A stretch of 64,000 nt of DNA from an uncultured virus (IMG/VR IMGVR_UViG_3300045969_000082) (IMGVR_UViG_3300045969_000082), one strand, 5' to 3'. Shown: positions 7,412 to 63,864, counted from the first letter of the stretch. Notes: generated from the letters alone by a model not told the origin. Numbers and translations: made by a program.

Positions 7412-10400
7412 CAGTCGTCTTCTCCCGGTATGTCCATTTGCCACGCGATCAGATCGACAAGTTCCTGCGGCGTCGGCGCCCACGGCCCGAACGCGAGGTG
7501 ATAGAAGTCGAAGTGGCTGTTGAGCCCGCCGCTCACCGCCCCGCCCAGCGAGACCATGGGGCGATCGCTGGAGGTCAGGCCCGGCGTCTGCCAGATCGGC
7601 GCGACGGAAACGAGATCGCCGTCCTTGTAGAGCCGCGCGTGGCCGGCCTGATAATCAACGATCGCGGTGAGGACGAACTTCTCGGATATCTCGAAATCGG
7701 CCGCCAGCACCTGCAACGAATCGGCGTTGAGGCGGCGGCCGCCGAGGTGCGGCTGGAGCGTCTGGTTGTAGAGCCCGAGCAGCAATCGTGCTGAGGTCGA
7801 CGTCTCCGTGATCGATGTCACAAAGAAACCGTTCGTCGAGGCGAGATTGACGGTCTCGTGCGGCAGCACGACGATCGACGCGAACGCCTGACCCACCGAC
7901 GCCATGATGTCGCGCTGGCTTTCGGGGAACAGATAGAGCCGGTCGGAGCCGTTGAACTCCAGCCACTCGGCCGTGCCGCTCGCGCGATAGGTCGGGTTGG
8001 GCGCGGCGAACGTGTTGGAGAAGCGGTTGATGTCGGCATGATCGTACATCATCTCGACAGTCTGGCCGGGGGCCGTCACAGGGATGCCGCCGGCGACCTG
8101 CCGAAGCAGTTTGCTGGCTGTCGGGCGGTAGGAGCCGCCCGACCGCGCGACGAAGAGATTGGCGGGATCGAAGCCCGGCGTCGGCGACGGCACGGCGACG
8201 ATCGTCACCGGGTCGGTATAGGCGGTGGTCTCGCCGGCGGCGTTGGTGAGCGTCACTGCGCAGCGGATGACGCTGCCGTTCGACGCTCCGGCATAGCTGG
8301 GTCCGGTCTCGTTCTCGATGTCCTGCCAGCCGCCACTGTCGATCTGCCACTGCCGGCTCAATGCCCCGAGCGGAGAGCCCGTCCACCCGCCTTCCGAGCA
8401 CCACAACGACCGGCCGGAAAACGGCTCGCCGATGATCTTCGGCAATACGGCGTTGACCGGCGGCGAAGGTGGCGGAATGTGGCCCTGCCGTATTGTGTCG
8501 TCGAGAGCCCACGCACCGTGCCGGCCGGCGTCGCGCCATTCTTCGGGGCCGAAATCGATGCCGTATTTATGCTCGAACACCATCACGAGGTAGGGCGTGC
8601 CGAACTGCCGTGCGGCATAGGACATGGTGTAGGCGGAGGTGAAGGTCGGATACAACTGATCAACGTCATGGTGAGCGGCGAAGTTCGATAGGAACGGCTG
8701 GCGCGCAGTCTCGGCCGAGATGTCGGCGCGATACCAGAAGCCCATGCCGCCCGTCGCGCGCCAGCCATGAAAGTCCAGCGCCACGTCCACCTGCGGCGGC
8801 AGGTCGATGGCGAACGCGTCCTGATAGATCGTACGAAGCTCGCTGTCGTCGTTCGGGTCCGGATCGTACCAGATGCGATTGCAGTCACTGTCGGTCTCGA
8901 CATCGACGCGGGTCTCGCCGGCGTGAAGCCCCTGCGCGTTGACGCGCGGATAGACGAAGAAGGTGCAGTCGCGGCGCAGGCGCTGCGCCCGCGCCGAGAC
9001 GCCGAGGATCGTCTCCACGAAGCCCTCGAACATGTAGTGGCCGACGAACTCGTCCTGATGAATGCCGCTGGTGAGCAGCACCTTGCGCGGCCCGGTGCCG
9101 ACGCAGAAGGCGTGGCTGTCGATGTCCGGCACGCTGCGTCCGTTGGTGCAGACGCGCGCCGAGACGGTGCCGATCCGGTAGCCGTCGATCGCCGAAGGCG
9201 TCGGCCGCGTCAGCGGATGGCCCAGCCACTCTTTGATCTTGTCGTCATACCGCTCGACGGTGTAGCGCGGCGCGGTGGCGAGATAGATGGTGTCGCTGGC
9301 GAACGGCGCGTCATTCGACAGTTCGAAGCGGTTGTTCGGCGTGTCGAAATCCTCATTGTCAAACCGATACCATGGGCCCTTGGGGTCCACCGCCCAGCAG
9401 ATGCGCCACTGGCTGTAGTTGTAGTTGCCGGGCGACCGCCGCAGGAGGAAGATTGTCGGGCTCTTGCCCGCAACGCCGCGCAACCGCGCCATGAAGGTGC
9501 GCCGGCCCCATCCGGGCGTAGTGATCGGTTCGCGCTCGGCGAGATACACCCAGCTCTGATCGCCCGCGATGGCCGACGAAGGATCATAATCGCCGCCGTC
9601 GAAGTCCCGATCCAGCGTCACATCGCCGAAAGAGACGAACTCTGGCAAATCGTCGCGATGCACGAACTTCTGACCCGGCGTCGCATCGGACAGGTAGTAA
9701 TAGTCATGCGCCTGCCGCTGTTCCGGCGACAGCGCGGTGGCCTCGGCGACAGTAAGCCTGCGCGGAACGACGATGTCGAATTCCTCGCGAAACACCTTCG
9801 CCGCGATGACGCGGTCGGTCTCAATCGACCCTGCACCCGAACCGCCGGCACCGCCCGCCGCCTCCAGATCGGCGACGCGCCCCACCAGCCCGGCGATCTC
9901 GGAGGAAAGCCGCTCCTTCGGCAGGCACAGAAAAACCATCGGATCGGTCATGTAGATGCGAGACGCCTCGGCCGTCGCATCCTTGACGTGGATGACCCGC
10001 CCGCACCGCGCGGTCGCAGGCGCGATGCCGACCCGCGCCGAGCAGGGCACCTCGCCGGCACTGGCGCCGGAGCGCACGCCAAGCTCGACAGGATCGCCCA
10101 CCGGCACAGTACCGGCCGGGTCGGAATACCATTGCCATGCTGCCGACATCGACACCGCCGTTGACCCGGCATACCAGCCCAGACGCGTGCTCACCCAATA
10201 TTCCTGCCCAGCCTCCACCGGCGTCGGCGCATGCGTCACCTCGATTCTCGCCGTCGATAGTTCGGTGGCGAGCAGATACTCGGCGACGCGGGTGGCGTTG
10301 GCTACGCCCCGCGCGATGCTGCCGCCGACCGTCGAATACAGAGAAATGCTCGTGCAGTTCGGGTCAGGATGCAGGTTCGGCCCCAGCAACCCGCGCCCGA

Positions 10401-31380: not shown

Positions 31381-31714
31381 CTTTCCCTTCCTGCCCGACG
31401 ATCGTTTGCTCCGCATCGAGGCGTTCCAACTTCATCATGGCCGCGCGCTTCGCTTCCATCGCTTGCCGTGTCGGGCGCTTCCCCTTGCCGATGGCGTAGG
31501 CAATGTCGTCTGTCGCGATGGCAAGCATCTCGACGTATTCGCGGGTTTTCAGCGTGAGGAGACCGGACTTGATGAGCGTCCGGCACCATTCGTCGTAGAC
31601 CTTGCGGCCGGCGGCCAAGAGCGGGATGTTCGGTTCCGGCAACTCCTTGAACGAGGTCAGGAAATGGACCTCTCCGGCGCTACTCGGCGTCTGCTGCTGT
31701 TCCTTGGTCTTCAT
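31319..31714 (-). CDS. terS: Terminase small subunit (P27-like)
   Basis: Directly upstream of terL; P..L...GRKVYDE pattern. Confidence 0.7.
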   Translation of the reverse strand: MKTKEQQQTPSSAGEVHFLTSFKELPEPNIPLLAAGRKVYDEWCRTLIKSGLLTLKTREYVEMLAIATDDIAYAIGKGKRPTRQAMEAKRAAMMKLERLDAEQTIVGQEGKGGNPYAAFGFARRTRQRRHG

Positions 31715-32147
31715 CGAACAGCTCCGCCAGCGGCCCGCGCTTCAGGATGGCGAACTGCGATGGTCTTGTCTCCGGATGCCGGCACCATTGCGGGAGAAGG
31801 CTGATCGCGCCAATCTTGCGGGCGTATCCCTCCATCTTGGCTTTCCATCCCTTGTGATGCACCCGGCAGAGCGCCTGAAGATTAGTCCATTCCAGCCGCA
31901 GATCGGGCTCGTCCTGCACGGGAACGATGTGGTCGACATCATCGGCCAGGCAGAGATAACCGCGCCGCCGGCACTCCTCGCACTGCCGCTTCACGCTCTG
32001 CATGTAGGCGTGGCGCAGCTTCTCCCAATCGGCGTCGTATCCCCTGCTCTGCCGGCTGCCGCGGTACTTTTCGCCCTTCCTGACACGTTCGCCGTCTTTG
32101 GCGCCGAGCTTCGGGGCGGTCTGGCGGCGAAAGGACGGGATAGTCAT
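31680..32147 (-). CDS. Packaging HNH endonuclease (HK97 gp74-like)
   Basis: RGYDADW...CEEC...VDHIVP...NLQALC..HH. Confidence 0.88.
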   Translation of the reverse strand: MTIPSFRRQTAPKLGAKDGERVRKGEKYRGSRQSRGYDADWEKLRHAYMQSVKRQCEECRRRGYLCLADDVDHIVPVQDEPDLRLEWTNLQALCRVHHKGWKAKMEGYARKIGAISLLPQWCRHPETRPSQFAILKRGPLAELFDEDQGTAADAE

Positions 32148-35877: not shown

Positions 35878-36324
35878 TCAAAGCAGGTCCTCCAGATCAA
35901 GCTGGCCTCCGCGGTTTCTGCGCGTGCGAGCAGCGTTTCGTGCGTGATGTTTGGCGTCGAGGCGCAGGTGATGGCGCTGGCAGAGGTGCGCCAGGTTGCT
36001 ATCCTCGTTGCGGGTTTCGTCGTGATCGAGGTGCGCGACGGTGAGAACAATCTTCAGCACCTTCTGCGCGCCGAACTCCGACGTGCAGCGCATCTGCCCC
36101 ATGCGAAGCCCTGTTTCAGCATCAAATACCTCACAGGTCTCCAGCACCATGTATGCGTCTCGGCCGCGATAGGTGCCGCGGGCGATCATCGTCATATGCG
36201 GGGCGCCGCAGGTCTCGCATTTCCAGCCCGAGCGCTCGCCGATCCTCTTGCGGATCGCGCGCCACTCCGGCGATTTGATCGAGCCGCCGGGATAGAGGTG
36301 CTGACGTTCGGGCCGGATCGGCAC
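35878..36324 (-). CDS. HNH-like protein
   Basis: MPIRPE...CETC...IVLTVAHLDH...NLAHLCQRHH. Confidence 0.8.
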   Translation of the reverse strand: MPIRPERQHLYPGGSIKSPEWRAIRKRIGERSGWKCETCGAPHMTMIARGTYRGRDAYMVLETCEVFDAETGLRMGQMRCTSEFGAQKVLKIVLTVAHLDHDETRNEDSNLAHLCQRHHLRLDAKHHARNAARTRRNRGGQLDLEDLL

Positions 36325-36490: not shown

Positions 36491-36871
36491 TCACGCCTCC
36501 TCGTCGCTGCCGACCTTGCCGTCGAGCGGCGCGGGCGGAGGTTCGACAGGATCAGGATCGGCGGCCTTCTGGACGAGGACCGTCACCTCTTTCGCCGGCC
36601 AGATCAGGTATGTTCCATCGTCGGCCTTCACCCAGAGCTTGTCGGCGTCGCTGGCGATAACTTTGGCTTCAGCGCCGTTCGTCCAGCGGACACGCTCGCC
36701 GACGTCGATCCGTGGCGCGATGAGCGTGACGTGCTCAAGCTTCACCCAGAGCGCGGAGTGGTGGCCTTCGACATCGACAAACACGCGGCCGCTGTCTTCA
36801 TCAGGCCGGCAGTCGTGGCGGACCTTGCCGGTCAGGCCGACGACATCGCCGGTGCGGAGGAGCGCGGTCAT
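36491..36871 (-). CDS. Hypothetical protein (tandem SH3/KOW-like)
   Basis: GDVV...VGERVRW beta-rich repeats; coupled to ACP gene. Confidence 0.55.
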
Positions 36872-37128
36872 GACACCCTCCCGCGCACGATCTTGATGGC
36901 GTCGCCGACGGTGATCGCTGCGTCGGCCTCATCGTCGGGAATCTCGATCCCGAACTCCTCCTCCAGCGCCATGACAACGCAGACGGTATCGAGGCTGTCC
37001 GCATCGAGGTCGTCGATGATGGACGCGGTGTCGACTACCTTGTCGGGCTCCACGCAGAGCGTGTCGGCGATACGGGACCGAACCCGCTTCGCGATATCGT
37101 CCTTCTCAGTCATTTCAGGCTTCTCCAT
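36868..37128 (-). CDS. Phage-encoded acyl carrier protein homologue
   Basis: [11 protein letters not shown]...[11 protein letters not shown]...TVGDAI with DSL phosphopantetheine site. Confidence 0.9.
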
Positions 37129-37273
37129 TGGGGTTGAGGGTTAGGCGGCGCGACTTTTCATGCATCGCAATCCATGCGGTCTTGAAACTGCCGGCGGGCG
37201 ACATCAGATCAAAGCAAGCCGCAGTGAACTGGCGGCTTAACCGTTGGAATCGTTTGTCAAACGAGAGGGAGCT

Positions 37274-37573
37274 ATGAATACCGGAGACTTCGCGAAGCCC
37301 GTCTACCTGAAGGACGGAAAGTACCTGATCCGCGAGATTTCCAATGTCATCGACGCGATCGAGTTCCTTGAGGAATGGCCCGAAAAGAGCCGGGACGTCC
37401 TCCACGAGGCGGCGCTTCGAACCTGCATCATGGCCCATGACGGCCTGAAGCCGATCAAGGTCGCGCGAGACGCCATCCGGGCTTTCGGTAAGAAGAAGGG
37501 CATCCTTGAGAAGGAACCTGCGGTGAAGCCGTGGATGATCAAGCCCACGTCTGGCGGCCAAGCTACAGCGTAG
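37274..37573 (+). CDS. DUF982-family protein
   Basis: FAKPV...DAIEFLEEWP...ARDAIRAF...GIL. Confidence 0.75.
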   Translation: MNTGDFAKPVYLKDGKYLIREISNVIDAIEFLEEWPEKSRDVLHEAALRTCIMAHDGLKPIKVARDAIRAFGKKKGILEKEPAVKPWMIKPTSGGQATA

Positions 37574-37599: not shown

Positions 37600-38283
37600 T
37601 CATGCGGCCATCTCCAGCGCATATCCGCCCCATTGCTCGGCGGCCGCAGCCATCATGCCGGGGAAGGATCGACTGCGAAGACGCGCTCGCTCAGGACCGG
37701 GCGTCATTCGGTGAACCCGGTTCCACCGCTTCCACTCGTCGCCGCCGCGCTCCGGCTCCGAAAGCAGATTGGTCGCAACCAGCGGACGAAGCCCGCGCAA
37801 GTACCAGCCCGTCGCTTTGTATTCGGGATGGCCGAACCAGAACGGCTGCACCATTTGGGGCTTAGGAAGATCGGCCGGCATCCGTGCCCGCGCCAGATCG
37901 TTCATCTCCGGGTTTTCGATGGCGACACGCTCGATCGGCGCTTTCCAGCAAGCTGTGAAGATCGAGACGCCTTCCTCAAACTCGGCCTTCATGCTTTCCC
38001 ATGTGCGCCCGGCCGGAAGCTTCTTCGGAGGCGTCCAGTTGCCCGGCCCGCTCATCCAGCGCCGGCCAGACCTGCAAAGGCGTGTGCAAGGCGGGTGAAG
38101 CACTGCGAGCAGATCCCAGCCGTCGTTCAGGATGCCGTCGCGGACGTCGCAGATGATGTGCCGGTTGCTGCCATCCTCGGCCGGGAGAATGTCGCAGGAC
38201 CAGACGTCGTGGCCGAGATCGGCGAAGGCGCGGCGCGCGATGCCGGATGTTTCGCAGGCGATGAGAACTCGGAGGGCGCTCAT
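37600..38283 (-). CDS. Compact C5 DNA cytosine methyltransferase-like protein
   Basis: VLIACETSG, SCDI, HPPC and IENP motifs. Confidence 0.75.
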   Translation of the reverse strand: MSALRVLIACETSGIARRAFADLGHDVWSCDILPAEDGSNRHIICDVRDGILNDGWDLLAVLHPPCTRLCRSGRRWMSGPGNWTPPKKLPAGRTWESMKAEFEEGVSIFTACWKAPIERVAIENPEMNDLARARMPADLPKPQMVQPFWFGHPEYKATGWYLRGLRPLVATNLLSEPERGGDEWKRWNRVHRMTPGPERARLRSRSFPGMMAAAAEQWGGYALEMAA

Positions 38284-38810
38284 GCCGCACCGCTCGGTGT
38301 CGATAGTGCTGACACAACATCCCAGCCGCGGCGAATGCGGCTCCTGACCGCGCTGCGATCGATGCCGAAATGCCGGCACCACCCGGTCATCGTCTTCGTG
38401 ACGCCGTCGATCGTGATCTTGCGGCAGATGCCGTGATTCTCGTTCTGCTCCTGCGGCGTAGCCCAGCGGACGTTCCCCACCTCGTAGTGGCCGTTCGTAT
38501 CAATGCGATCGAGTGTGTGTTCCGGCGTTGGCGCGAAACCGATGTCGTCGAAGAACTCCTCGAAGCTCTTGAAGCGGAACTTGATGCCCCGGCCGCCGTA
38601 CCACTTGTAGGAGTGCTCCTTCTTCGAGGTGCAGCGCGCACGGGCTGAATAGTAGGCGCGGTACTCTTTGGTGCCGGCCATATGGTGCGTCACCTTGCTG
38701 TTCCGCTTCGGATCGGCGCGACCGTTTCGTCGGCGCTTGGGCCGCCTGCCGTATTTCACGTCGAGGAGCCGCGTGTCGGTCATAGCGAGAACGCGAAGAT
38801 GCCCAGCCAT
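38280..38810 (-). CDS. HNH endonuclease
   Basis: YGGRGIK...TLDRIDTNGHYEVGNVRWAT...QN. Confidence 0.85.
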   Translation of the reverse strand: MAGHLRVLAMTDTRLLDVKYGRRPKRRRNGRADPKRNSKVTHHMAGTKEYRAYYSARARCTSKKEHSYKWYGGRGIKFRFKSFEEFFDDIGFAPTPEHTLDRIDTNGHYEVGNVRWATPQEQNENHGICRKITIDGVTKTMTGWCRHFGIDRSAVRSRIRRGWDVVSALSTPSGAA

Positions 38811-39049
38811 CACGCCACCTCCCAAGGGAAGACCGCCTCGCCCTGCCTCGGGTAGAGAACCCGACACGCCAATCGGATCGCTGGAGGAGCCCCTTCGCGC
38901 TGGTAATTGCTGACCGATGCCTTGCTGATCCCCAGCGCCTTCGCAGCCGCGGCGCCGGTGTATCCCATGAGTTCGAGCCACGCCTTGAACTCGGTCGCAG
39001 ACATGTCGCGGCCCCCGTTCACGACACTCGATTTCACTCGCTGGTTCAT
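38810..39049 (-). CDS. Cro-like HTH protein
   Basis: FKAWLELMG...AAAKALGISKASVSNY. Confidence 0.7.
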   Translation of the reverse strand: MNQRVKSSVVNGGRDMSATEFKAWLELMGYTGAAAAKALGISKASVSNYQREGAPPAIRLACRVLYPRQGEAVFPWEVA

Positions 39050-39383
39050 TTGCGGAATGTTCTCTCGCTATAGGGCATTTTCGTTCATCTGCTGAACACA
39101 CGTATACGCATTGCACACGAATATCAATACGTGTCGTAGCGATAATCTCAACGATGCCCCCGCACCCACCCCGCCGACCAGAAGGGTGTTTTCTGGATTG
39201 GAGAATAAATCTCTCGCCGCGCCGGTCCTGAGCTAACTGCCTGTTTTTTAACCGCGAATGGGGTAGGGGTTCATCATAGAGGGTCTGATGGTCGAGCTGC
39301 TGGCGTCACTTGGCACGCGGCTTGCTTTCGCGTGCGCCCGTGCTGTTATCGGCCTTGCTGGCGGCAACTTTTCTTCATCAATT

Positions 39384-39426
39384 AATACATTTCGTATTGC
39401 ATCATCCGGCGAGTCGTGCTTCTATT
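39384..39426 (+). promoter_or_regulatory. Putative promoter with overlapping operator
   Basis: AATAC-ATTTC-GTATT (39384-39398) overlaps TTGCAT -35; same palindrome at cI/cro and 57958-57996. Confidence 0.65.
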
Positions 39427-39535
39427 CGTTCAGGCAATGGTGCCGACGGGGACTGAGCAAGGCGAGTGTGCCGACGGTCTCTGAACTACCCAGGCAGACA
39501 GGCAATTGTGCCTACCGATAGAGGAACCCCAATTC

Positions 39536-39775
39536 ATGCAGCCCGCAGCTTTCGCTACCTACTTCGACACCTGGGCCGGCCCTATCACCGCCGCGCTGGT
39601 TCCATTCCGCACGAAGCGCAAGGGCGTGACGGTCACGCGCTACCGCTGGCAGGCCGCCAATGGGCAGGCCGTGGGCGGCTTCGCCTCGCCCTTCATGACC
39701 GTTGAGGGGGCGCTGCGCGCCATCGAGCGTCACGCCTGCTTTGCGGGCGGCGTGAAGGCGGAGGCGCAGGCATGA
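39536..39775 (+). CDS. Hypothetical early protein
   Basis: GAGGA RBS preceded by AATTGT hairpin. Confidence 0.6.
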   Translation: MQPAAFATYFDTWAGPITAALVPFRTKRKGVTVTRYRWQAANGQAVGGFASPFMTVEGALRAIERHACFAGGVKAEAQA

Positions 39776-39918
39776 CCATGCGTGTCACCGTCACCGTTCA
39801 CAACGCCGGCCCGCATACCATTTGGGCAAAGCTGGCCGCACTGCTTGGCCGTGAGCCGACCAATGCAGAAGCGGCGGAGGAAGTCCGGCGCATCCTGCGC
39901 GAAGCAAGGGAGGGATGA
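39772..39918 (+). CDS. Hypothetical small protein
   Basis: ATGA-coupled at both ends; LLGREPTNAEAAEEVRRIL. Confidence 0.55.
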   Translation: MTMRVTVTVHNAGPHTIWAKLAALLGREPTNAEAAEEVRRILREAREG

Positions 39919-40163
39919 ACATGTTGCAAGTCTGGGCCTATCCCGACCGCGCCGACGTGACGCGCTATGGCGTGTTCGCCCGGTTCAGCGACTTCGGCGG
40001 CACCGACGTCAGCTATTACTTTCACCGCCTCGGCGATGACGGGCGCATCATCGAATACGAGAACGGCGGGCGCTGCCTCGACGTGGTGTCCGGCGCGCGC
40101 CTCAAGACCGCCAAGCGCGTCGGCGCCATCGCCCCCGGCGACGCCTTCACCACCCCCGCCTAG
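39915..40163 (+). CDS. Hypothetical protein
   Basis: GGGAGG RBS; coupled. Confidence 0.65.
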   Translation: MNMLQVWAYPDRADVTRYGVFARFSDFGGTDVSYYFHRLGDDGRIIEYENGGRCLDVVSGARLKTAKRVGAIAPGDAFTTPA

Positions 40164-40251
40164 CGCCTTGCGTAACCGGCGCGCGCCGCCGGTTATCTGG
40201 CCGCTAGACCGCCAAAGGGCAATCGTGCCCGCCTATCGAAGGAGTCGACCT

Positions 40252-40380
40252 ATGAAGACCGATATTCACGCCACCCGCCGCGACACGTTCGCCAACCGGC
40301 CGGAAGGCCGAGTCCGTCGCGATGAACGCCGCAACGCGCGCACCGCAAAGCAGGCTTTCGCCTTTATGGCGTCGGTGTAG
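40252..40380 (+). CDS. Small Arg-rich protein
   Basis: AAGGAG RBS with AATCGT hairpin; RVRRDERRNARTAK. Confidence 0.55.
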   Translation: MKTDIHATRRDTFANRPEGRVRRDERRNARTAKQAFAFMASV

Positions 40381-40393
40381 GGAGGTGAGCAAT

Positions 40394-40699
40394 ATGGCTT
40401 GGGAAATCGAATCCCGAGGCATCAAGGATGAGATGCTGAAAGAACCTGGCCCGAATGGCCGCTGGCTGTTCCGTATTCAGGAAATGCCCGGCCTTGGCCG
40501 CGACGCCGTGCCTATCCGGCATACCATCATGGCCGCGCCCGACATGCTGGCGGCGCTGAAGCAGGCCGAGTCCGACCAAATGGCATATGTCGACCGGCTC
40601 TATCGCGACGGGCCTCGCATGGCCGGGAGCCTTGCGGAAGCGCGCGCACGCCTTGCGGCAACTCGTGCCGCCATCGCGAAAGCCGAGGGCGCGGCCTAA
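40394..40699 (+). CDS. Hypothetical phage protein (AAPDML...AAIAKAEG family)
   Basis: GGAGGT RBS; common phage C-terminal motif. Confidence 0.7.
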   Translation: MAWEIESRGIKDEMLKEPGPNGRWLFRIQEMPGLGRDAVPIRHTIMAAPDMLAALKQAESDQMAYVDRLYRDGPRMAGSLAEARARLAATRAAIAKAEGAA

Positions 40700-40783
40700 C
40701 CCGCCGCGCCTGCCCCTACCCCTGAAACCGCTCTGCCCGCGCTTCAAGCGCCACGGCGAAGCTATGCCCGAAAGGTCAAAACG

Positions 40784-42121
40784 ATGATTTCTTACACCGC
40801 CACCTATTCGCCCGAAGACAACAAATTGCGCCTTTATGCGTCGTCGCGCCTTGATGCCGAGACTTACCAGCGCGTCAAGGCCGCCGGCTTCGTATGGGCT
40901 CCCAAGCAAGAGCTATTCGTTGCGCCGAAATGGACGCCTGGCCGGGAGGATTTTCTTGTTGAGTTGGCCGGCGAAATCGAGCCGGAAGAGATGACGCTTG
41001 CCGAGCGAGCGCAGGCCAAGGCTGAACGCCTCGACAATCTCGCCCACAAGCGCCACCGGGAGGCCAACGCCTTTCAGCGAGCCGCGCAACAGCTTTCCGA
41101 AGGGTTCAGCGGCGGGCAGCCGATTCTCGTCGGCCATCACTCCGAGCGCAAGGCGATGAAGACGAAAGAGCGCATGGACGCTGCGCAGGAAAAGGCAATC
41201 AAGGCCGCGAAACTGGCTGATTACTGGCTCTATCGCGCCGATGGTGTTGAAGCCCATGCGAACTATAAGAATGATCCGCGCACCCGCGCCCGGCGCATTA
41301 AGACGTTGCTGGCCGAGCTGCGCGACCTGCAAGGCAATCTCAACAACTGCCATGCCGCGCTAGCGTTTTGGGGTCGTGTCACCGATGACGAGACAATCAT
41401 CAAAGCCGCAAGTTATGGCAAGTTCACCAAGTTCGGCGACCACGGCGCACTGGAACGCGGCGAGAAGACGCCGCAAGGTCTACGCGCTGAACGGATCGAA
41501 GCTTATCAGCGCGCCCTTGATTCCGGATATTATGAACGCTGGATTTCCCATATTCTGAATCGCCTTTCGTATGAGCGCGAATTGCTCGGCAACGTGCCGC
41601 GCCACGAAGGCGAGTTGCGGGAAACAGCGATTCAGATGTTCGCCCGCGAGCATGGCGCGGAGAAGCCGAAGGCGACGGCAACAGATTTCGGCTTTGTGCT
41701 GGAATCGCCCGTCCCGCTTCCCGCTCATATCGGCCAAGGCAAGACGCTGGAACTTTCGCCGGACGAATGGCGCGATCTCATGCGGGATTGCGGCTATTCC
41801 ATCCCTGACGTGAAGCGCAACGAAAAGGTGGCGATCGTCAACGTCAAGGCCGGCGCCATCATGGTCAACCGTTTCGGCAAGCAACAGGCAATTCCCGTTG
41901 TCGAGATGACCAAGGCCGAATACGGCAAGATTTACGCCGAGCAACGCGGCACCTTCACAAGCGCAGACGGCACGTTCCGCGTGAAGGTCTGCCCGAATCC
42001 GAGAACTGACGTTCCCCGCTATATGGCGGGATGGTGCGCGGTTTTCCTCACGGATTCGAAGGTTCACCCGACGCCGGATAGCGATTGCATTCTGGCTGAA
42101 ATGCCGGAGGCCGCAGCATGA
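40784..42121 (+). CDS. DUF3560-like protein
   Basis: ATYSPEDNKLRLYA...WAPKQ...GQPILVGHHSERKA. Confidence 0.8.
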   Translation: MISYTATYSPEDNKLRLYASSRLDAETYQRVKAAGFVWAPKQELFVAPKWTPGREDFLVELAGEIEPEEMTLAERAQAKAERLDNLAHKRHREANAFQRAAQQLSEGFSGGQPILVGHHSERKAMKTKERMDAAQEKAIKAAKLADYWLYRADGVEAHANYKNDPRTRARRIKTLLAELRDLQGNLNNCHAALAFWGRVTDDETIIKAASYGKFTKFGDHGALERGEKTPQGLRAERIEAYQRALDSGYYERWISHILNRLSYERELLGNVPRHEGELRETAIQMFAREHGAEKPKATATDFGFVLESPVPLPAHIGQGKTLELSPDEWRDLMRDCGYSIPDVKRNEKVAIVNVKAGAIMVNRFGKQQAIPVVEMTKAEYGKIYAEQRGTFTSADGTFRVKVCPNPRTDVPRYMAGWCAVFLTDSKVHPTPDSDCILAEMPEAAA

Positions 42122-42723
42122 GCCGCCCCGCGCATTTCAACCGGCCCGACAAGCCCTTGTTTCTGGACAGGCAGCGCCGTGAACGCTTCGGCGATCTGGA
42201 GAAGGTCGAGCTTGTCGAGCCCGTCATGGTCGACCGCGCCACGGAATGCCACGTCACGCCCGGCGACGTCGCGGCCCGCATGGTTGACTATCTCGGCCCG
42301 CAAGGCGACTGGTTGACCTTGGAGCCTAGCGCCGGGACCGGGCAGCTTTCCCGCGCGCTGTTGGCGGCCGGGCATAGCCGATACGAGCTTGTCCAGGTCG
42401 AGCGCCACATAAAGCTTGCGGCCGGGCTTCACGGCTTCGGATCGGTCGTCAATCGCTGCTTTCTGGAATGGGCCGGCGAAGTCGTGGGAAAGGTGGAGTT
42501 CCCGCGGGTCATCATGAACCCGCCATTTAGCGACGTGCGAAAGCATGTCGCGGCGGCGCTATCCCTAATGGGGCGGGGCGGGCACGCCGAGCCGGCGACT
42601 CTCGTCGCCTTGGTGCCGATCACGTTTCAGCACGACGACGCGGAGACGCTGGAAACCCTCCCGCCTGACACGTTCGCAACGGCGAAAGTCCACACCAAGA
42701 TAATCCGGATCGAACGCCGATGA
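42118..42723 (+). CDS. Amino (N6-adenine-type) methyltransferase
   Basis: LEPSAGTG motif I before IMNPPF motif IV; ATGA-coupled to the DUF3560 gene. Confidence 0.8.
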   Translation: MSRPAHFNRPDKPLFLDRQRRERFGDLEKVELVEPVMVDRATECHVTPGDVAARMVDYLGPQGDWLTLEPSAGTGQLSRALLAAGHSRYELVQVERHIKLAAGLHGFGSVVNRCFLEWAGEVVGKVEFPRVIMNPPFSDVRKHVAAALSLMGRGGHAEPATLVALVPITFQHDDAETLETLPPDTFATAKVHTKIIRIERR

Positions 42724-42863
42724 TCCGCGCCATTCTCTCCGAGCTCGCCGCGGCGAGCTGGCGCGACTGGCTCGCCTGCTTGGCCGAGTTCGCCGGAATG
42801 GCCGTCATTGTCGCGTCAATCGCCCTGATCTGCGTCGGGCTCGCGCCCGATCTGAACCCATAG
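42720..42863 (+). CDS. Small TM protein
   Basis: Coupled; hydrophobic C-terminus. Confidence 0.4.
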   Translation: MIRAILSELAAASWRDWLACLAEFAGMAVIVASIALICVGLAPDLNP

Positions 42864-42877
42864 GAGGATTCAGACCA

Positions 42878-43084
42878 ATGTCATTCTCATTCAAAACACA
42901 ACAGGCGGTTGTGCCCTATCGCCTGTGGCTTGGCGCTGGCGGCGTTCGCTACCTGCTGCACGGCCAATCGACGCCCGGACACAATAACGGCGTTCCGGTC
43001 AAATCTGTATCGGAAGCCAAAAGGATTGCGGCCGCTTGGCGTGAAAGCGGTATCCGCGCGCCTTATGATCCGCTCGACGCCTAG
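42878..43084 (+). CDS. Hypothetical protein
   Basis: AGGAGG RBS. Confidence 0.6.
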   Translation: MSFSFKTQQAVVPYRLWLGAGGVRYLLHGQSTPGHNNGVPVKSVSEAKRIAAAWRESGIRAPYDPLDA

Positions 43085-43177
43085 CAGGATTCCAGCCTTC
43101 ACGGCCGCCGTTGGTGGCCGTGCGGGGTGCAATCGCACCGCCTGGCAATCGTGCCAACCAACAGAAGGAGTCCAACC

Positions 43178-43594
43178 ATGACGGCAGTTTTCAAGGATTC
43201 GGACGGCGACTTTCTGCCCGTGCCGCGCGCCCGCTCTATGGCCGCGATTAAGCGCGCCAGCATGACGGCAACACGCGCCCGCCTGAAATCGAGGTCCATA
43301 TCGGCCAAGGAACACGCCGCCCTGCGCGCCTATCAGTACGCATTGGCAATGACCGGCAACGAATGCCCGCACTCGATTTCGCTGCGTCGTGAGGCTATTC
43401 GCTGCGTGACATTCGACCTAAATTCCGAAGGCCGCAGCGTCCCGCGCAATGTCTATCTAGGAGGCGCGATTCCGTTCGAGATTCCGAATTGGGATTTCGT
43501 GCCGGAGGAGCCGCGCTTGATTGTGGATCGCCCCGCGTATCGCGCGCCGTCGCATTTCTATTCATCCGCCTCAGCTTTGCAGATGGCCGCCTAG
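43178..43594 (+). CDS. Hypothetical protein
   Basis: AAGGAG RBS with AATCGT hairpin. Confidence 0.65.
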   Translation: MTAVFKDSDGDFLPVPRARSMAAIKRASMTATRARLKSRSISAKEHAALRAYQYALAMTGNECPHSISLRREAIRCVTFDLNSEGRSVPRNVYLGGAIPFEIPNWDFVPEEPRLIVDRPAYRAPSHFYSSASALQMAA

Positions 43595-43697
43595 CAGCCT
43601 CACCAGCGGGCGCGGGCTGATCTGCGCCCCCCTACACCAGAAACAACGCCAGCGCCCGCCACAGGCCGCGCTTGGCTGAACAGGAAAGGATTCCGAG

Positions 43698-44102
43698 ATG
43701 AAGACCTATTCTGTCCTGATCGCATGGAACGACAGCGACGACGAAGAAGGCGATTACGGGGCGACTGTGCGCGCCGCCGACCGTGACGAAGCCGAGTCCA
43801 AGGTTCGCGTATTGATGGCCGTTGACGATCAATTCGCAGACGACGGGCCGCGCGAGTATGGCCGCCTGCTCGATTGCACGGAAGGCGCAATGTGGAAGGC
43901 TGCCGATCTGGAGGCCGCATTGCGCGACATGCGCGTCGCCTATGGCCGCCTGCATGACTTCCTGTCCGACGCCATCGAAGGCGGAAGGCTCAAGGAAAGC
44001 GACCTGCCCGACGATTATCTGGCGATCGTCACCCAACTGGAAACCTGCGCCGCTGCCGATCACAAGGCGAAAGCGATCATCGCTGAAATCGACGCGCTCT
44101 AA
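43698..44102 (+). CDS. Acidic hypothetical protein
   Basis: AAAGGA RBS; D/E-rich. Confidence 0.7.
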   Translation: MKTYSVLIAWNDSDDEEGDYGATVRAADRDEAESKVRVLMAVDDQFADDGPREYGRLLDCTEGAMWKAADLEAALRDMRVAYGRLHDFLSDAIEGGRLKESDLPDDYLAIVTQLETCAAADHKAKAIIAEIDAL

Positions 44103-44143
44103 CCGTCATCCGCCAATCGTGGCGACCATAAAGGAGAACCCCA

Positions 44144-44629
44144 ATGACCGAACGCAATTTCGACGCCATCGCCTTTTTGTTCGATCTGGTTCAGCCTATG
44201 CTGACCGAGTTCGATGATTATCGGATCGACGGCGCGCTGAAGGCCGCCAAGGAGCAGCACGCCGCCGCCCTAACGGATTCAGCGATGTTCGACCTGCTTT
44301 GCGAGAGCTTCGACGCATGGAACGGCGAGGAGGTTTCCGTGAAGGAAGAACACGCCGACCTGATCGAGAAGTCAGAAGCATTCATCAATGCCGCACGGCC
44401 ACGCTTCTCCGCACCAATCTGCATGGAAGACCTGATAGAGAAGGATGCCGCCGACCGCGCTGCCGATCCCGTCAAGGCTGCGCTGCTCGACTGCATCGGC
44501 GCGCTGTCGGCCAGCATGGATCAAATTCATCAGATGCGCGGCATGTTTGATGATGCAGACGGCACGATTCAGGACGCGCTAGACGCCGCCGAGGATGCGC
44601 AGGCGAAGGCCCGCGAGGCGCTGGCCTGA
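44144..44629 (+). CDS. Acidic helical hypothetical protein
   Basis: AAGGAG RBS with AATCGT hairpin; D/E-rich. Confidence 0.7.
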   Translation: MTERNFDAIAFLFDLVQPMLTEFDDYRIDGALKAAKEQHAAALTDSAMFDLLCESFDAWNGEEVSVKEEHADLIEKSEAFINAARPRFSAPICMEDLIEKDAADRAADPVKAALLDCIGALSASMDQIHQMRGMFDDADGTIQDALDAAEDAQAKAREALA

Positions 44630-44805
44630 TGCGCGCTGTGCTCAAATATGTTCCAGCCCACGGGTTGCTTGTCACACTTTCCGAAGATGGGAAGCCCGAA
44701 CGTTCGCGGCTCATCATCAAAGCTGAGCTTGGGAAGGACGTCGGATTGGCGAAGTCCGCAGCTTTCGCCGCCCTTGCCCTTGCTGGCTATTCGGTGGGCG
44801 GCTGA
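44629..44805 (+). CDS. Hypothetical small protein
   Basis: TGATG coupling. Confidence 0.45.
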   Translation: MRAVLKYVPAHGLLVTLSEDGKPERSRLIIKAELGKDVGLAKSAAFAALALAGYSVGG

Positions 44806-44807
44806 CC

Positions 44808-45113
44808 ATGACGCGCATATTCGATATGCTGCGGTCGCCTATGGGGGACCGAATGCGCAGATACCGCTACATCAAGATGACGCCGGCCGAGATTTCGGCA
44901 GCGCTCCAACGCACCGGCCTGACCGTCGGCCAGTTCTCGCGGATCATCGGCGCCAGATACAACGGCCCGGACGATTCCACGGTCCAGAAATGGCTGGATG
45001 GCAAGCAGGATGCCCCGACCTATCTCCCGGCCCTGTTCGCGCTCCTTGCCCTTCCTGGGGGCGTAGAGACGGCACGTGAGGCGGCCGAGCGCTATATCGA
45101 GGAGGATTCCTGA
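44808..45113 (+). CDS. XRE-like HTH protein
   Basis: MTPAEISAAL...GLTVGQFSRIIG...TVQKWLDG. Confidence 0.7.
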   Translation: MTRIFDMLRSPMGDRMRRYRYIKMTPAEISAALQRTGLTVGQFSRIIGARYNGPDDSTVQKWLDGKQDAPTYLPALFALLALPGGVETAREAAERYIEEDS

Positions 45114-45289
45114 TGGCACGCCCGAAGCTTGGCGCGAGCGAAACCGAGCGGCTGCACGTCAAGATCACCGCTGATGAGGTGCGTGCCATAGAGGATTGGC
45201 GATACGAGAATCGCGTGCCGTCTCGATCCGAGGCCGTTCGCCGCCTTATCCAGATCGGTCTTGAAACCAGCAAGGGGGAGGATTCCTGA
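45113..45289 (+). CDS. Ribbon-helix-helix protein
   Basis: Hand-translated MARPKLGASETERLHVKI...IEDWRYENRVPSRSEAVRRLIQIGL. Confidence 0.75.
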   Translation: MARPKLGASETERLHVKITADEVRAIEDWRYENRVPSRSEAVRRLIQIGLETSKGEDS

Positions 45290-45645
45290 TGGCACGCGGC
45301 TGGAAAGGAAACGCGCTCGGACTCCAGAAATGGGAGGTCGAGTGCGCCCACAAGGCCAGGCTCGACGCAACCGAAGCCGTGGCGCACCTGATGCGGCAGG
45401 GGAAGACGTTCAACGACGCAAAAGCCGAGATCGTGAAGCGCGCCCGGTCGGTCTACAAGTTCAGCCGGCCGGAGCTTTACGAGGGATATTTGCGCTGTGT
45501 CAGCGATGTGCAGTTCTCCGACATGCCGCGCGACATCTTCCGCAAGATCGAGGACGATTTCCGGGCGTCGATCGAGAAGCAGCGCGGGAAGCCGTTCAAC
45601 TGGCTGGATCGGATTCTCTGGCGCGCGTTCGGAGTGACATTCTGA
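45289..45645 (+). CDS. Hypothetical protein
   Basis: GGAGG RBS; coupled. Confidence 0.65.
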   Translation: MARGWKGNALGLQKWEVECAHKARLDATEAVAHLMRQGKTFNDAKAEIVKRARSVYKFSRPELYEGYLRCVSDVQFSDMPRDIFRKIEDDFRASIEKQRGKPFNWLDRILWRAFGVTF

Positions 45646-46112
45646 TGGGAACCATTGACTGGATTGAAGTTGCCAAAATCGCCCTTCCGTTTTTCGGCGG
45701 TTTGGGCGGTGTGTGGCTCGGATCCTTGCTAACTCTCAGGCGCTTCAAATCGGAGCGCATAATTGAGCGTCAAATCGCGGCAATAGCCGATGTGGGGCAG
45801 GCGCTTTCCGAAATGGACCGGGTGATTTTCATGTGGATTCGAGAACTCACCCGCGAGGCAGAATATCCAAAGGAATATTCCGATGATCTCGAAGCGCGCT
45901 ACAAAGCCGCGCGCAGGCAGTTTGAAACGACATCAGCGGTTGCCTCACTTCTACTGCCTAAACATGTAAACGAGGCGTTGGTCGCGATGGACCGACAACT
46001 GAACGTCGGACGAGGCGTCGACCAGTTCGATAGCTTGTCCGCCGATGGGATCAAGATTCAAGAAACCCTAGACGTGTTGGTTGCGTATAGCCAGAAGCAT
46101 TTTCGTGGCTGA
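45645..46112 (+). CDS. N-terminally membrane-anchored protein, lower GC
   Basis: IALPFFGGLGGVWLGSLL TM then helical domain. Confidence 0.65.
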   Translation: MGTIDWIEVAKIALPFFGGLGGVWLGSLLTLRRFKSERIIERQIAAIADVGQALSEMDRVIFMWIRELTREAEYPKEYSDDLEARYKAARRQFETTSAVASLLLPKHVNEALVAMDRQLNVGRGVDQFDSLSADGIKIQETLDVLVAYSQKHFRG

Positions 46113-62597: not shown

Positions 62598-63451
62598 GCA
62601 GCAAGTCCGACGCCCCTGCCCTGCGCCTAGTTGTCGAACGTGGGCCGAAGCTGGTGCCGGCATCAGCTTTCGACGCCGAACGGCTGGATACGTTCAAGGT
62701 CGGCCGCGTGCTCCGGTTCACCCCGGTTGAGGAAGCCGACCGCAAGGACATTCGCCGCTGGTGGGCAATCCTGAATCGCGCGGTGAAAGACACCAAGACA
62801 CCGTGGCGCACGGCGACGCAGGCCAGCGAGGCGATCAAGCTCGCGCTCGGCATCGTCGAGTACGGCAAGACCGTCGGCGGCCAGTTCATGCAGTGGCCGA
62901 AATCGTTGAAGGAACTCGACGACGAGGAGTTGGCCGAGGCCGTCCGCGACATGGCAGCCCTGCTGCACAGGATGACCGGCGTCGATCCGCTCGAATGGAA
63001 CAGGGAATCGGCCGACGTCGGCCAAGATGAGGCAGAACAGCCGGAGCAGTCGGCCCCCGACGATACCGGCTCAGGCAGCAGCGGAGACGAAACGCCCCCC
63101 GCCCAAAACTCCGCTGCTGCCGATCAATCCGCGAGTGCGGCGGACCAAGAGGATGGCGCCGAGCCGGGCGGGGCCAGCGCAGGCGATGACACGCCATCCT
63201 CCGATCTCGACGGTGTGAAGCGAATGCTCATGGAAGAGTGCGCCGACAACATGCTGCGCGACGCCTTCTCCGAGCCAAAGGATCAGCAAGCAGAGAAAGT
63301 CGACAAGCTGGAGCGCATCTTCCTTGAGCCGCAGAACCTCGGATCTCACCCGCATTTCGTGAAGCTATGCGCCGAAACCGCACGCCGCATCATCGGCAAG
63401 CCACAAGAGCGTGGCCGTGCCCGTGAATACTTGATGGGAAAGATCGGCTGA
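62594..63451 (+). CDS. NinB/DUF1367-like protein with acidic linker
   Basis: RRWWAIL...IKLALG...PKSL; position. Confidence 0.55.
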   Translation: MSSKSDAPALRLVVERGPKLVPASAFDAERLDTFKVGRVLRFTPVEEADRKDIRRWWAILNRAVKDTKTPWRTATQASEAIKLALGIVEYGKTVGGQFMQWPKSLKELDDEELAEAVRDMAALLHRMTGVDPLEWNRESADVGQDEAEQPEQSAPDDTGSGSSGDETPPAQNSAAADQSASAADQEDGAEPGGASAGDDTPSSDLDGVKRMLMEECADNMLRDAFSEPKDQQAEKVDKLERIFLEPQNLGSHPHFVKLCAETARRIIGKPQERGRAREYLMGKIG

Positions 63452-63864
63452 TGGGGGTCATCTCCGAGAAACTGCGCCGCAGCGCCCGAGGCCAGGATTG
63501 CACATTCGAGATACCGAATGTCTGCAACCATGATCCTGACACGTCGGTCCTTTGCCACGCCCCAAGCGAGGTTAAGGGGATGGGGTCGAAAGGCCACGAC
63601 TACAACGCCGCAATCGGGTGCAGCGACTGTCACCGCGCACTCGACGAACACCGTCTTCCTCGGGAGGACGAGATGTTCTTCTGGCTCCGCGGGCTCCAGC
63701 GCACATGGGCTATCTGGGTCGCGAAGGGTTTGATCCTCCTCCCCGTCGATCCTGCCACAGCCAAGAAGCGCCCGAAGAAGCCGTCCTATTGGCCGTCGCG
63801 CCAGATCCAGTCGCGGAACACCCTGTCACGAAAGAGGAAGGAGCCTCGCGATGACGATGCTTGA
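63451..63864 (+). CDS. DUF1364/YbcO-like Zn nuclease
   Basis: LRRSARGQDC...VC...VLCH...KGMGSK...GCSDCH. Confidence 0.8.
   Translation: MGVISEKLRRSARGQDCTFEIPNVCNHDPDTSVLCHAPSEVKGMGSKGHDYNAAIGCSDCHRALDEHRLPREDEMFFWLRGLQRTWAIWVAKGLILLPVDPATAKKRPKKPSYWPSRQIQSRNTLSRKRKEPRDDDA

Follow-up and report, generated by a model that had tools for sequence, protein, structure and literature searches.

A hairpin with a conserved AATNGT loop precedes ribosome-binding sites in a phage accessory operon and recurs in many phage sequences

Introduction

Start-associated sequences (SAS) of Cluster K mycobacteriophages reportedly follow a 13-nt asymmetric consensus that contains the Shine-Dalgarno sequence (SD) and lies 3-8 nt from the start codon; extended forms (ESAS) are said to add inverted repeats upstream, and the function of both is thought to be translational. 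The gp43 operator of phage T4 forms a hairpin immediately upstream of the SD; its loop is specific, and initiation is blocked when a phage protein binds it. This operator is a single site serving one gene, whereas T4 RegA controls many early mRNAs through unstructured sites. In lambda-type nut sites, boxB is a pentaloop hairpin that accompanies boxA; each early operon has one, with no known link to an SD. PeSL cassettes of T4-type phages consist of an early promoter joined to a stem-loop.

SAS and ESAS are recorded for Cluster K mycobacteriophages in PMC3203893, PeSL cassettes of T4-type phages in PMC2839356 and PMC4122927, and T4 translational operators in the review PMC3014915. According to PMC13551039, the regulators Aca1 and Aca2 bind hairpins in the 5' UTR whose 3' end is about 20 nt from the start codon. 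Located directly 3' of the transcription start and sharing an operon with the regulator gene, these hairpins serve to repress translation. Hairpins of this kind additionally occur between genes of anti-defence operons, and motifs for Aca10 and Aca12 are predicted. For N4-like hairpin promoters, PMC9163698 gives a distance of 11-15 nt from the hairpin centre to the 5' ends, with LUZ7 early promoters starting at a G 13-14 nt from it. The loop has 3 nt in N4-like early promoters and 3-4 nt in LUZ7 middle promoters, whose stem has at least 6 bp.

Here we analyse a group of small hairpins in 64,000 nt of DNA from an uncultured virus (IMG/VR IMGVR_UViG_3300045969_000082), referred to as the window. 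The consensus of the family to which they belong is N-GGC-AAUNGU-GCC-N', a 4-5 bp stem with a fixed loop, 5-8 nt 5' of an SD. It resembles SAS as a short conserved element at a near-fixed distance before the starts of a subset of phage genes, but unlike the SAS consensus, the family is a separate hairpin with a fixed loop in front of an ordinary SD. Sequence, host group and architecture differ, and the family spans contigs of very different G+C content. Its position directly 5' of the SD recalls the gp43 operator, although neither that operator nor the RegA sites have its loop. The 19-22 nt between hairpin and ATG match the spacing of about 20 nt given for Aca motifs in PMC13551039. No Aca homologue was recognised in the window, however, and the Aca stem is conserved and read by an HTH protein, whereas in the family conservation falls on the loop and the stems differ. 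The aca2 leader of phage ZF40 has TTCG/CGAA stems and carries the start codon in the loop. In kind, the family may be likened to start-associated sequences and Aca-type leader hairpins.

Results

The preliminary description had listed five AATBGT-loop hairpins, and direct reading as well as a script located all of them on the + strand, including the promoter-proximal copy (Table 1). The spacing of 19-22 nt to an ATG behind an SD that it had claimed was likewise found for four copies, each of the four ATGs following a purine-rich SD (GAGGA or AAGGAG). A further hairpin, which had been listed beside them, is present directly 5' of copy 4 but does not belong to the family: it is a separate hairpin that gave no match on the + strand with our covariance model R1.

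Table 1. Positions of the hairpins and of the genes and operon around them in the window
Feature	Position	Strand	R1 match	Remarks
Hairpin copy 1, GGC-AATGGT-GCC	39433..39444	+	39426-39451, 19.5 bits	promoter-proximal; no SD/ATG directly behind
Hairpin copy 2, AGGC-AATTGT-GCCT	39500..39513	+	22.4 bits	ATG 39536 (79-aa ORF), gap 22 nt
Hairpin copy 3, GGGC-AATCGT-GCCC	40217..40230	+	27.4 bits, E 7e-5	ATG 40252, gap 21 nt
Hairpin copy 4, TGGC-AATCGT-GCCA	43143..43156	+	24.6 bits	ATG 43178 (138-aa ORF), gap 21 nt
Hairpin copy 5, CGCC-AATCGT-GGCG	44111..44124	+	21.2 bits	ATG 44144 (161-aa ORF), gap 19 nt
Separate hairpin, GGTGC-AATC-GCACC	43126..43139	+	none on + strand	directly 5' of copy 4; not a family member
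Accessory operon with the hairpins	39536..46112	+		co-directional; small ORFans and the genes below (ORF calls, Pfam, PHROGs)
42-aa Arg-rich peptide gene	40252..40380	+		candidate binder of the preliminary description
DUF3560 gene	40784-42121			in operon
Methyltransferase gene	42118-42723			in operon
HTH-like gene	44808-45113			operon end; weak PHROG regulator match, E 3e-4; no Pfam match
RHH-like gene	45113-45289			operon end; weak PHROG regulator match, E 9e-7; no Pfam match

R1 contains no SD or ATG columns and was built from 140 sequences, two of them from the window. It ranked the five copies first in the window, the next match scoring 16.1 bits and all others at most 12.3 bits; a look-alike at 37245-37256 (TGG/TTG, with G-U pairs only) was not detected by the model. 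On both strands of the window, AATNGT was enclosed by at least four Watson-Crick pairs five times, compared with a mean of 0.41 and a maximum of 3 in 300 dinucleotide shuffles. Four of these five hairpins cluster within 4.7 kb, and the fifth (7780-7793), antisense inside a 1256-aa ORF, is probably due to chance. The fold of copy 2 has a 5-bp stem and a tetraloop, and for the AATNGT loop in general an alternative drawing gives a 5-bp stem whose AUNG tetraloop is closed by A-U. In copy 5 the stem carries a G-C to C-G swap. The related phage L009 has the counterpart of copy 1 fused straight onto the first ribosome-binding site, where the window carries a 67-nt insertion that brings one extra hairpin; the equivalent of copy 3 likewise stands 5' of the peptide gene in L009.

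N-GGC-AATNGT-GCC-N' before an SD and ATG was also detected in relatives and in unrelated IMG/VR contigs. Within single arrays the stems change and stay complementary while C-AATNGT-G is kept (GCC/GGC, GATC/GATC, GTC/GAC, TCTC/GAGA), which supports the claim that structure plus loop are under selection. By a script test, 11 of the 13 hairpins of one array (L033) and six of the eight of another (L042) are followed by an SD and start. Across the 140 sequences the covariation score was 0.239, compared with 0.093 after shuffling (0/500 shuffles reached 0.239) and at most 0.128 with slid partners. The stem must be paired: in an unselected set, an SD and start followed 15 of 49 AATNGT occurrences with a stem of at least three pairs but only 31 of 1389 without one, in agreement with the proposed tie to gene starts. 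The swapped GCC/GGC stem is much rarer than GGC/GCC, by far the commonest, and was found at at least 23 ATG-linked sites versus 7 for the mismatched GCC/GCC. Because most copies share GGC/GCC, part of the 'stem' is conserved sequence. At the fifth pair no excess of pairing was seen (41 paired, 38.3 predicted from column frequencies).

Across contigs of 28-72% G+C, five of the six loop bases do not vary, and neither does the closing C-G. Loop sequence and orientation are specific. GGGC-AATNGT-GCCC followed by GGAG occurs in 76 IMG/VR stretches (69 unique, 50 with ATG), a permuted loop in nine (5 unique, one with ATG) and the reverse complement of the loop in 24 (18 unique, 6 with ATG). The variable loop base shared at most 0.15 bits of mutual information with any other column. 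Among 97 aligned sites, no column from -70 to -4 exceeded 0.16 bits, and hence no conserved upstream signal was detected. Sigma-70-like sites numbered two in 7.2 kb (1.8 expected), none of them at a hairpin; the transcription start of the operon is a guess from weak -35/-10 elements that are absent from the output of the consensus scan.

The hairpins lie in an accessory operon of anti-restriction type, probably an early one, of a siphovirus prophage. By a hand count in the window, with the first gene of the operon included, they precede four of the six genes with an upstream gap of at least 40 nt and none of the tightly packed genes; inside the operon, copies stand 8-90 nt 3' of upstream stop codons. 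The pair of DUF3560 and methyltransferase genes matches genes of conjugative plasmids. In the PDB, the HTH-like and RHH-like products gave a weak match to the MuB-N HTH as their sole match. Metatranscriptome contigs from four runs covered 34-50 kb evenly over both gene blocks, a pattern that shows neither expression nor transcript ends. One run contained a contig spanning 39022-45416, roughly the operon, which as a single run is no evidence.

In five whole phage records (36-107 kb), R1 gave 23 matches, all on one strand and within one region of 1-14 kb per record; an SD and start were recognised at 18 of them by a regular expression and at 22 by reading. The same model found 35 non-seed matches in five bacterial genomes, with just one clear start-linked case, from which it follows that hosts do not use the hairpin for their own genes. 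An uncontrolled pattern scan of bacterial genomes yielded 82 matches in many phyla, some before ordinary genes; the whole-genome R1 search argues that most of those at host genes are chance or inherited. No named phage matched the operon in blastn, and in a plasmid collection only its DUF3560 and methyltransferase part was matched, the motif being absent from the four plasmid loci examined. The covariance models of Rfam 15 gave no match at the hairpins with E up to 10. An osmY match from Rfam was rejected, as it aligns a different hairpin and SD and skips the motif. The literature searched contained no description of this loop. Since a hairpin stands before the ribosome-binding sites of several genes of the operon and recurs in many phage sequences, we regard it as a real gene-expression signal, apparently an undescribed one.

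Discussion

Our preferred reading, to which we tentatively assign a probability of about 0.4, is that the hairpin acts in the mRNA, where it would mark cistrons with translation starts of their own and be read by a loop-specific factor that sets ribosome access. The hairpins form a strand-specific start-associated family before the SDs of independently initiated cistrons in one operon, with one further copy at the predicted 5' end of the transcript. The mobile element would supply a putative RNA-binding factor specific for the loop, which would bind the hairpin in the mRNA next to the SD. As each cassette brings its own copy, changeable cargo genes would be switched together, and repression after an early burst is the favoured direction of the effect. 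The analysis shows that the hairpin exists, that it has to be paired, and that its orientation, its place before SD and ATG and its restriction to one region per phage are constant; we infer the direction of the effect, as well as reading in RNA instead of DNA and a protein as reader; the HTH-like and RHH-like genes at the end of the operon count for this reading beside the Aca precedent. Against it, nothing points to RNA specifically: at free stem positions G-U was no more frequent than A-C (13 vs 17; 6 vs 9). A fixed loop with varying stems is moreover the reverse of stem binding by an Aca2-type HTH, and the HTH and RHH assignments are weak. A loop kept over so wide a G+C range is also more in line with a conserved reader than with regulators that evolve fast. 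Searches for a reader protein covered 77 loci with flanks of up to 8 kb and found no family in more than nine of them, and a whole-record comparison of six carriers found only phage structural and replication genes in common.

Without any reader, the hairpin might serve as the header of a gene cassette, insulating the SD from upstream sequence and/or capping the 5' side of the cistron, and the block of about 30 nt formed by hairpin and SD might act as a short-homology junction for the exchange of accessory genes, its loop being kept by descent or copying. We consider this unlikely. In its favour, the downstream genes are very diverse (products of at least 30 aa from 108 hairpin-start pairs fall into 80 BLAST clusters), no PHROG was assigned to 56 of 72 downstream and 66 of 70 other array proteins, and relatives retain the hairpins despite differing gene content. 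The extra hairpin in the insertion relative to L009, the RecT-like and exonuclease genes of the phage and the searches of loci and carriers that found no reader point the same way. The PeSLs of T4-type phages offer a precedent, being regulatory cassettes that recur throughout regions of variable gene content and may help genes to be shuffled, but no conserved promoter accompanies the family hairpin. Insulation alone would be insufficient to hold the loop, since its sequence is fixed, together with the closing C-G, over the whole G+C range. Permuting the loop lowers the number of unique sites 14-fold (from 69 to 5), and the strictly kept orientation towards the SD speaks for read-out.

Read-out could also be the task of the host, with the 30S subunit or a host RNase recognising the loop. 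The hairpin would then be a portable translation enhancer or a processing or stability signal by which incoming elements express their cargo at once. The hairpin lies immediately upstream of the SD, at the site where structured leaders are docked by the 30S platform. No element-encoded protein is common to the carriers, the loop withstands wide differences in G+C, and the matches in many bacterial phyla include some before ordinary genes. That scan lacked a control, however, only about 1 in 35 non-seed R1 matches in bacterial genomes is start-linked, and in phages the hairpins keep to a single operon, with none at the structural genes, which are highly expressed. A host reader appears improbable.

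We attach similarly little weight to a hairpin acting in DNA, either as a hairpin-type promoter or as a hairpin read in non-template or single-stranded DNA, with transcripts starting near the SD. The missing preference of G-U over A-C would suit it, and so would the resemblance to N4-like promoters as a small G+C-rich hairpin at a fixed distance (13-15 nt) upstream of a G: GGAG begins 12-17 nt from the hairpin centre, compared with 13-14 nt for the start of LUZ7 early promoters (PMC9163698), and the middle promoters described there have loops of 3-4 nt. Carrier arrays also hold DUF932, DUF3560, SSB and ParB_N genes, which are typical of conjugative elements that enter as single strands. In contrast, the family loop has 6 nt, or 4 nt on a 5-bp stem, and not 3. 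Among the 68 window ORFs scanned, no virion or single-subunit RNA polymerase of the kind that N4-like promoters need was found, and no polymerase family is common to the carriers. The copies follow upstream stop codons in an operon that already has a promoter-like region, and this prophage injects double-stranded DNA.

A dimeric HTH or RHH regulator binding GGCA-N4-TGCC in double-stranded DNA, at the promoter and at internal sites, is very unlikely in our view. The dominance of the GGC/GCC stem, the copy at the predicted promoter or 5' end, the two regulator-like genes at the operon end and the binding of the RHH protein Aca14 to inverted repeats at promoters, described in PMC13551039, would agree with such an operator. 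A reader of two half-sites would not require co-variation, so the arms that change together within single arrays argue against it. The centre is asymmetric, the orientation to the gene and the distance to the SD are fixed, and internal operators before every cistron would have no obvious use.

The proposal of the preliminary description that the Arg-rich 42-aa peptide binds the hairpins as boxB-like antitermination sites appears highly improbable. Lambda boxB is likewise a small hairpin, conserved in its loop and variable in its stem, that is read by an Arg-rich peptide; one copy in the window lies just 3' of the predicted promoter, and in each of the four phages that encode the peptide its gene itself follows a hairpin. 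These are the window, L009, L042 and L048, with a weak match in L033; the peptide family comprises 13 clusters among 5.8 billion proteins, whereas the hairpin has a far broader distribution. Restricted to four related phages and missing from most carriers, the peptide did not hold up as a general binder, and in the PDB neither a relative of it nor a match to N was found. Antitermination fared no better: unlike the pentaloop and stem of about 5 bp of the lambda nut site, the AAUNGU loop has 6 nt, or is an A-U-closed AUNG, and is not GNRA-like. No boxA or boxA-like conserved flank was found 5' of the hairpin, an N-like Arg-rich protein is not encoded in every carrier, and the sites are placed gene by gene at SDs and not at promoters.

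Much of the anti-defence repertoire that is still unexplored resides in accessory operons of phages and conjugative elements, whose genes have to be produced fast and afterwards held back. Marked by a 14-nt signal, such genes would offer a sequence handle for finding cargo arrays in metagenomes; in the five whole phage records R1 pointed to one region each. If its reader is identified, the signal would also be a compact transferable control part. A bolder and rather unlikely extension is that mobile elements widely use the AAUNGU hairpin as a portable signal for the control of translation, with one conserved reader, possibly the host ribosome or a host RNase. Should this be true, any cargo gene behind a copy would follow one timetable of expression or silencing across widely differing hosts, and the hairpin would be a general 'expression socket' for anti-defence cargo with the reach of a riboswitch class.

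Pairing beyond the hairpin itself is not general. Between the 5' flank and the start region the mean best helix was 3.78, compared with 3.68 after shuffling, and an outer helix is confined to one subfamily and to copy 5, where GUCAU/AUGAC flanks are able to pair around the hairpin as well.

Hairpin copies in the window

Direct reading of the sequence, and a script, placed all six sequences of the preliminary description at their coordinates on the + strand. The ATGs at 39536, 40252, 43178 and 44144 were located, as described, 22, 21, 21 and 19 nt 3' of the four full hairpins, with a purine-rich Shine-Dalgarno sequence (SD) in between. GGTGC-AATC-GCACC (43126-43139), which had been listed with these copies, proved to be a separate hairpin. 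At least four Watson-Crick pairs around AATNGT were found in five hairpins of the window, compared with a mean of 0.41 and a maximum of 3 in 300 dinucleotide shuffles; one of the five (7780-7793) lies antisense within a 1256-aa ORF and is probably a chance occurrence. A look-alike at 37245-37256 pairs through G-U only and has no match to R1, our hairpin-only covariance model.

R1 comprises 26 positions without SD or ATG columns. In a search of the window, which contributed two of its 140 seed sequences, the five copies were the top matches (27.4-19.5 bits), followed by one match of 16.1 bits and others of at most 12.3 bits. On RNA folding, every copy formed a stem of 5 bp capped by an AUNG tetraloop, since the A that opens and the U that ends the AATNGT "loop" are able to pair. 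Around copy 5 (44105-44148), the flanks GUCAU and AUGAC are able to pair outside the hairpin and SD, enclosing the start codon. A similar covarying outer helix was seen in a subfamily of IMG/VR sites (e.g. L139, L150, L168, L273); across the whole site set no outer helix rose above controls (3.78 vs 3.68). Directly 3' of the stop codon of a 68-aa ORF there is a G+C-rich hairpin without T run (43101-43125). This hairpin and the SD region together matched Rfam osmY below threshold (17.3 bits; gathering score 46.9).

Features of the window, with coordinates and strand
Feature	Position	Strand	Remark
Terminase, portal, capsid, tape-measure and tail-fibre genes	7.4-32 kb	-	
HNH-endonuclease-type gene	31680-32147		
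HNH-endonuclease-type gene	35878-36324		
Acyl-carrier-protein-like (PP-binding) gene	36868-37128		between packaging genes and hairpin operon
DUF982 gene	37274-37573		between packaging genes and hairpin operon
HNH-endonuclease-type gene	38280-39116		divergent from hairpin operon
Hairpin copy 1	39433-39444	+	no SD/ATG behind
Hairpin operon (small ORFans, DUF3560 gene, methyltransferase)	39.5-46.1 kb	+	
Hairpin copy 2, full	39500-39513	+	sequence reading
Hairpin copy 3, full	40217-40230	+	sequence reading
DUF3560 + methyltransferase pair	40784-42723		
Hairpin copy 4, full	43143-43156	+	sequence reading
Hairpin copy 5, full	44111-44124	+	sequence reading
HTH-like gene, operon end	44808-45113	+	weak support
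RHH-like gene, operon end	45113-45289	+	weak support
DnaB, RuvC-like and methyltransferase genes	46-54 kb	-	
RecT-like and exonuclease genes	60-63 kb		
HNH-endonuclease-type gene	63451-63864		

Genomic context

Gene annotation identified the window as a siphovirus prophage, and its DNA is present in sequencing runs labelled ant metagenome. By manual count, six operon genes, including the first, are preceded by a gap of 40 nt or more. Four of these follow a hairpin; no gene that overlaps its neighbour or is packed tightly against it does. The DUF3560 and methyltransferase pair, here within a prophage operon, is found elsewhere on 191 conjugative or mobilisable plasmid records; many of the records are conjugative, with ArdC-like, SSB and ParB genes as neighbours. 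Copy 1 lies about 7 nt 3' of a weak -35/-10 (TTGCAT-17-TTCTAT) that a consensus promoter scan did not report. Compared with the related locus L009 (2551), which has a single copy fused directly to the first RBS, the window carries a 67-nt insertion (39445-39511) that separates the promoter-proximal hairpin from the first RBS and brings in a second copy.

Loop, orientation and pairing of the hairpin in other phages

Pattern counts over all of IMG/VR, with an ATG counted when it lay 4-10 nt after GGAG, revealed that loop sequence, orientation and pairing each matter, in agreement with the earlier proposal of selection on structure plus loop. Of the 18 unique reverse-orientation sites, at least two belong in sense orientation to a gene encoded on the opposite strand. 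GGC/GCC far outnumbers every other stem, which makes part of the "stem" a matter of conserved sequence.

Pattern counts in IMG/VR
Pattern	Stretches	Unique	With ATG
GGGC-AATNGT-GCCC + GGAG	76	69	50
Same stem, permuted loop TAANTG	9	5	1
Reverse complement of loop	24	18	6
GGC/GCC + AGGAG	at least 122	at least 106	at least 62
Swapped stem GCC/GGC	at least 121	at least 96	at least 23
Mismatched GCC/GCC (complete list)	65	56	7

An identical phage is present in three IMG/VR contigs, and in the relatives L009, L010 and L011 the motif precedes the SD and ATG of other genes. Pattern scans also detected hairpin arrays in the unrelated contigs L033, L042, L014 and L049. L033 holds 13 hairpins, 11 of them with SD and start codon by script test, on the stems GCC/GGC, GATC/GATC, GGTC/GACC, GGCC/GGCC and GGC/GCC; in L042 the proportion was 6/8, with TGGC/GCCA, GCC/GGC, GTC/GAC, TCTC/GAGA and other stems. 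The covariation score of 140 aligned sites, in most of which pairs 1-3 and often 4 were preset by the scan patterns, was 0.239 compared with 0.093 for shuffled sites; none of 500 shuffles reached this value, and slid partners gave at most 0.128. Past the fourth pair there was no excess of pairing (41 observed, 38.3 expected from column frequencies). The variable loop base was G in 86, C in 58, T in 53 and A in 16 of 213 sites, among which no covariation of this base with other columns was found. Two 24-codon ORFs, L074 7920-8032 and L089 5623-5734, each stand behind a hairpin (stems AGGC/GCCT and ACTGGC/GCCGGT) and presumably resemble pqqA.

Linkage to gene starts and confinement to mobile elements

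Among 1951 AATNGT in larger loci, none picked by a scan pattern, SD and start followed 15 of the 49 with a stem of at least three Watson-Crick pairs, compared with 31 of the 1389 without stem. R1 searches of five whole phage records (36-107 kb) returned 23 matches, per record on one strand and within a single region of 1-14 kb; these records were selected for holding arrays and have their own copies in R1. The informative part is the lack of matches elsewhere in them. SD and start lay behind 18 of the 23 matches by regular expression and 22 by reading, the last having SD and ATG about 40 nt off. In five whole bacterial genomes, each selected for a pattern match, R1 gave 45 matches with E up to 2, of which 40 were inspected (5 seeds and 35 others). 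Only one of the 35 non-seed matches was clearly start-linked and two were doubtful; most lay in apparent coding sequence. A pattern scan of bacterial genomes had 82 matches and no control, and its host-gene cases should not be given weight. The confinement in phage records and the result in bacterial genomes therefore show that the hairpin belongs to operons of mobile elements and is no start signal of bacteria in general. It is real, strand-specific and start-linked.

The cargo is diverse. Products of at least 30 aa from 108 hairpin-start pairs formed 80 BLAST clusters, the biggest of which had five members. A PHROG was lacking for 56 of the 72 proteins encoded downstream and for 66 of 70 further proteins of the arrays. 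Pfam matches in the arrays (DUF932, DUF3560 + MTase, DUF4942, DUF5983, SSB, ParB_N, DUF3268, beta-clamp, MoxR + VWA) form a set that we take to be typical of anti-restriction and establishment regions of conjugative elements.

Possible modes of action

With a probability of about 0.4, we favour an mRNA hairpin read by a putative loop-specific factor from the mobile element; such reading would control the translation of swappable cargo genes together. The window, G002, G003 and G006 (G005 for capsid genes) are records of related HK97-like siphoviruses with structural and replication genes in common, and no obvious RNA-binding candidate common to the window, G002, G003 and G006 was found. No protein family occurred in more than nine of 77 loci. 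A reader supplied by the host seems quite improbable to us, and an insulator or recombination junction that needs no reader, for which the swappable cargo and the insertion relative to L009 may be considered, is unlikely. The Arg-rich peptide (gene at 40252) had been put forward as a candidate binder, with a boxB-like site among the readings offered. Apart from a weak match, it occurs in four related phages only (13 clusters in the protein collection), no solved relative was found, and the hairpin lacks a defining feature of boxB; this explanation can hardly be upheld.

G-U and A-C were equally frequent at free stem positions, so the sequence alone is no proof of RNA reading. A DNA hairpin or promoter would also be compatible with this, and is a rather remote prospect. 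In 97 sites there was no promoter-like conservation upstream (columns -70 to -4 all at most 0.16 bits). A defining feature of N4-type hairpin promoters (PMC9163698) is absent. A duplex operator, to be weighed against the orientation control, is very unlikely.

The element has its closest working analogue in the hairpins that Aca1/Aca2 bind in the leaders of anti-CRISPR operons. Those hairpins begin at the TSS, finish some 20 nt short of the start codon, are found between genes as well and serve as binding sites for the HTH regulator of their own operon (PMC13551039). In Aca systems, however, conserved stems are read, and the leader of ZF40 itself differs from the window hairpin, which is thus not an Aca element. 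Nor does it belong to the other close analogue, the start-associated sequences (SAS) of Cluster K mycobacteriophages; SAS are reportedly of different sequence and contain the SD. A defining feature of PeSLs is missing as well. Rfam had no match at the hairpins, and literature searches brought up no description of the AATNGT loop.

A start-linked repeat different from the hairpin was observed in an establishment-type region of the Phaeobacter piscinae plasmid pP36_d (L301, 11930-24050), where four genes beside a DUF3560 gene each stand behind a cassette of about 50 nt, CCCCGCCCCGATTTTCGGCACCAAGACCGGAAGGGGCACACCACAAGGAGG.
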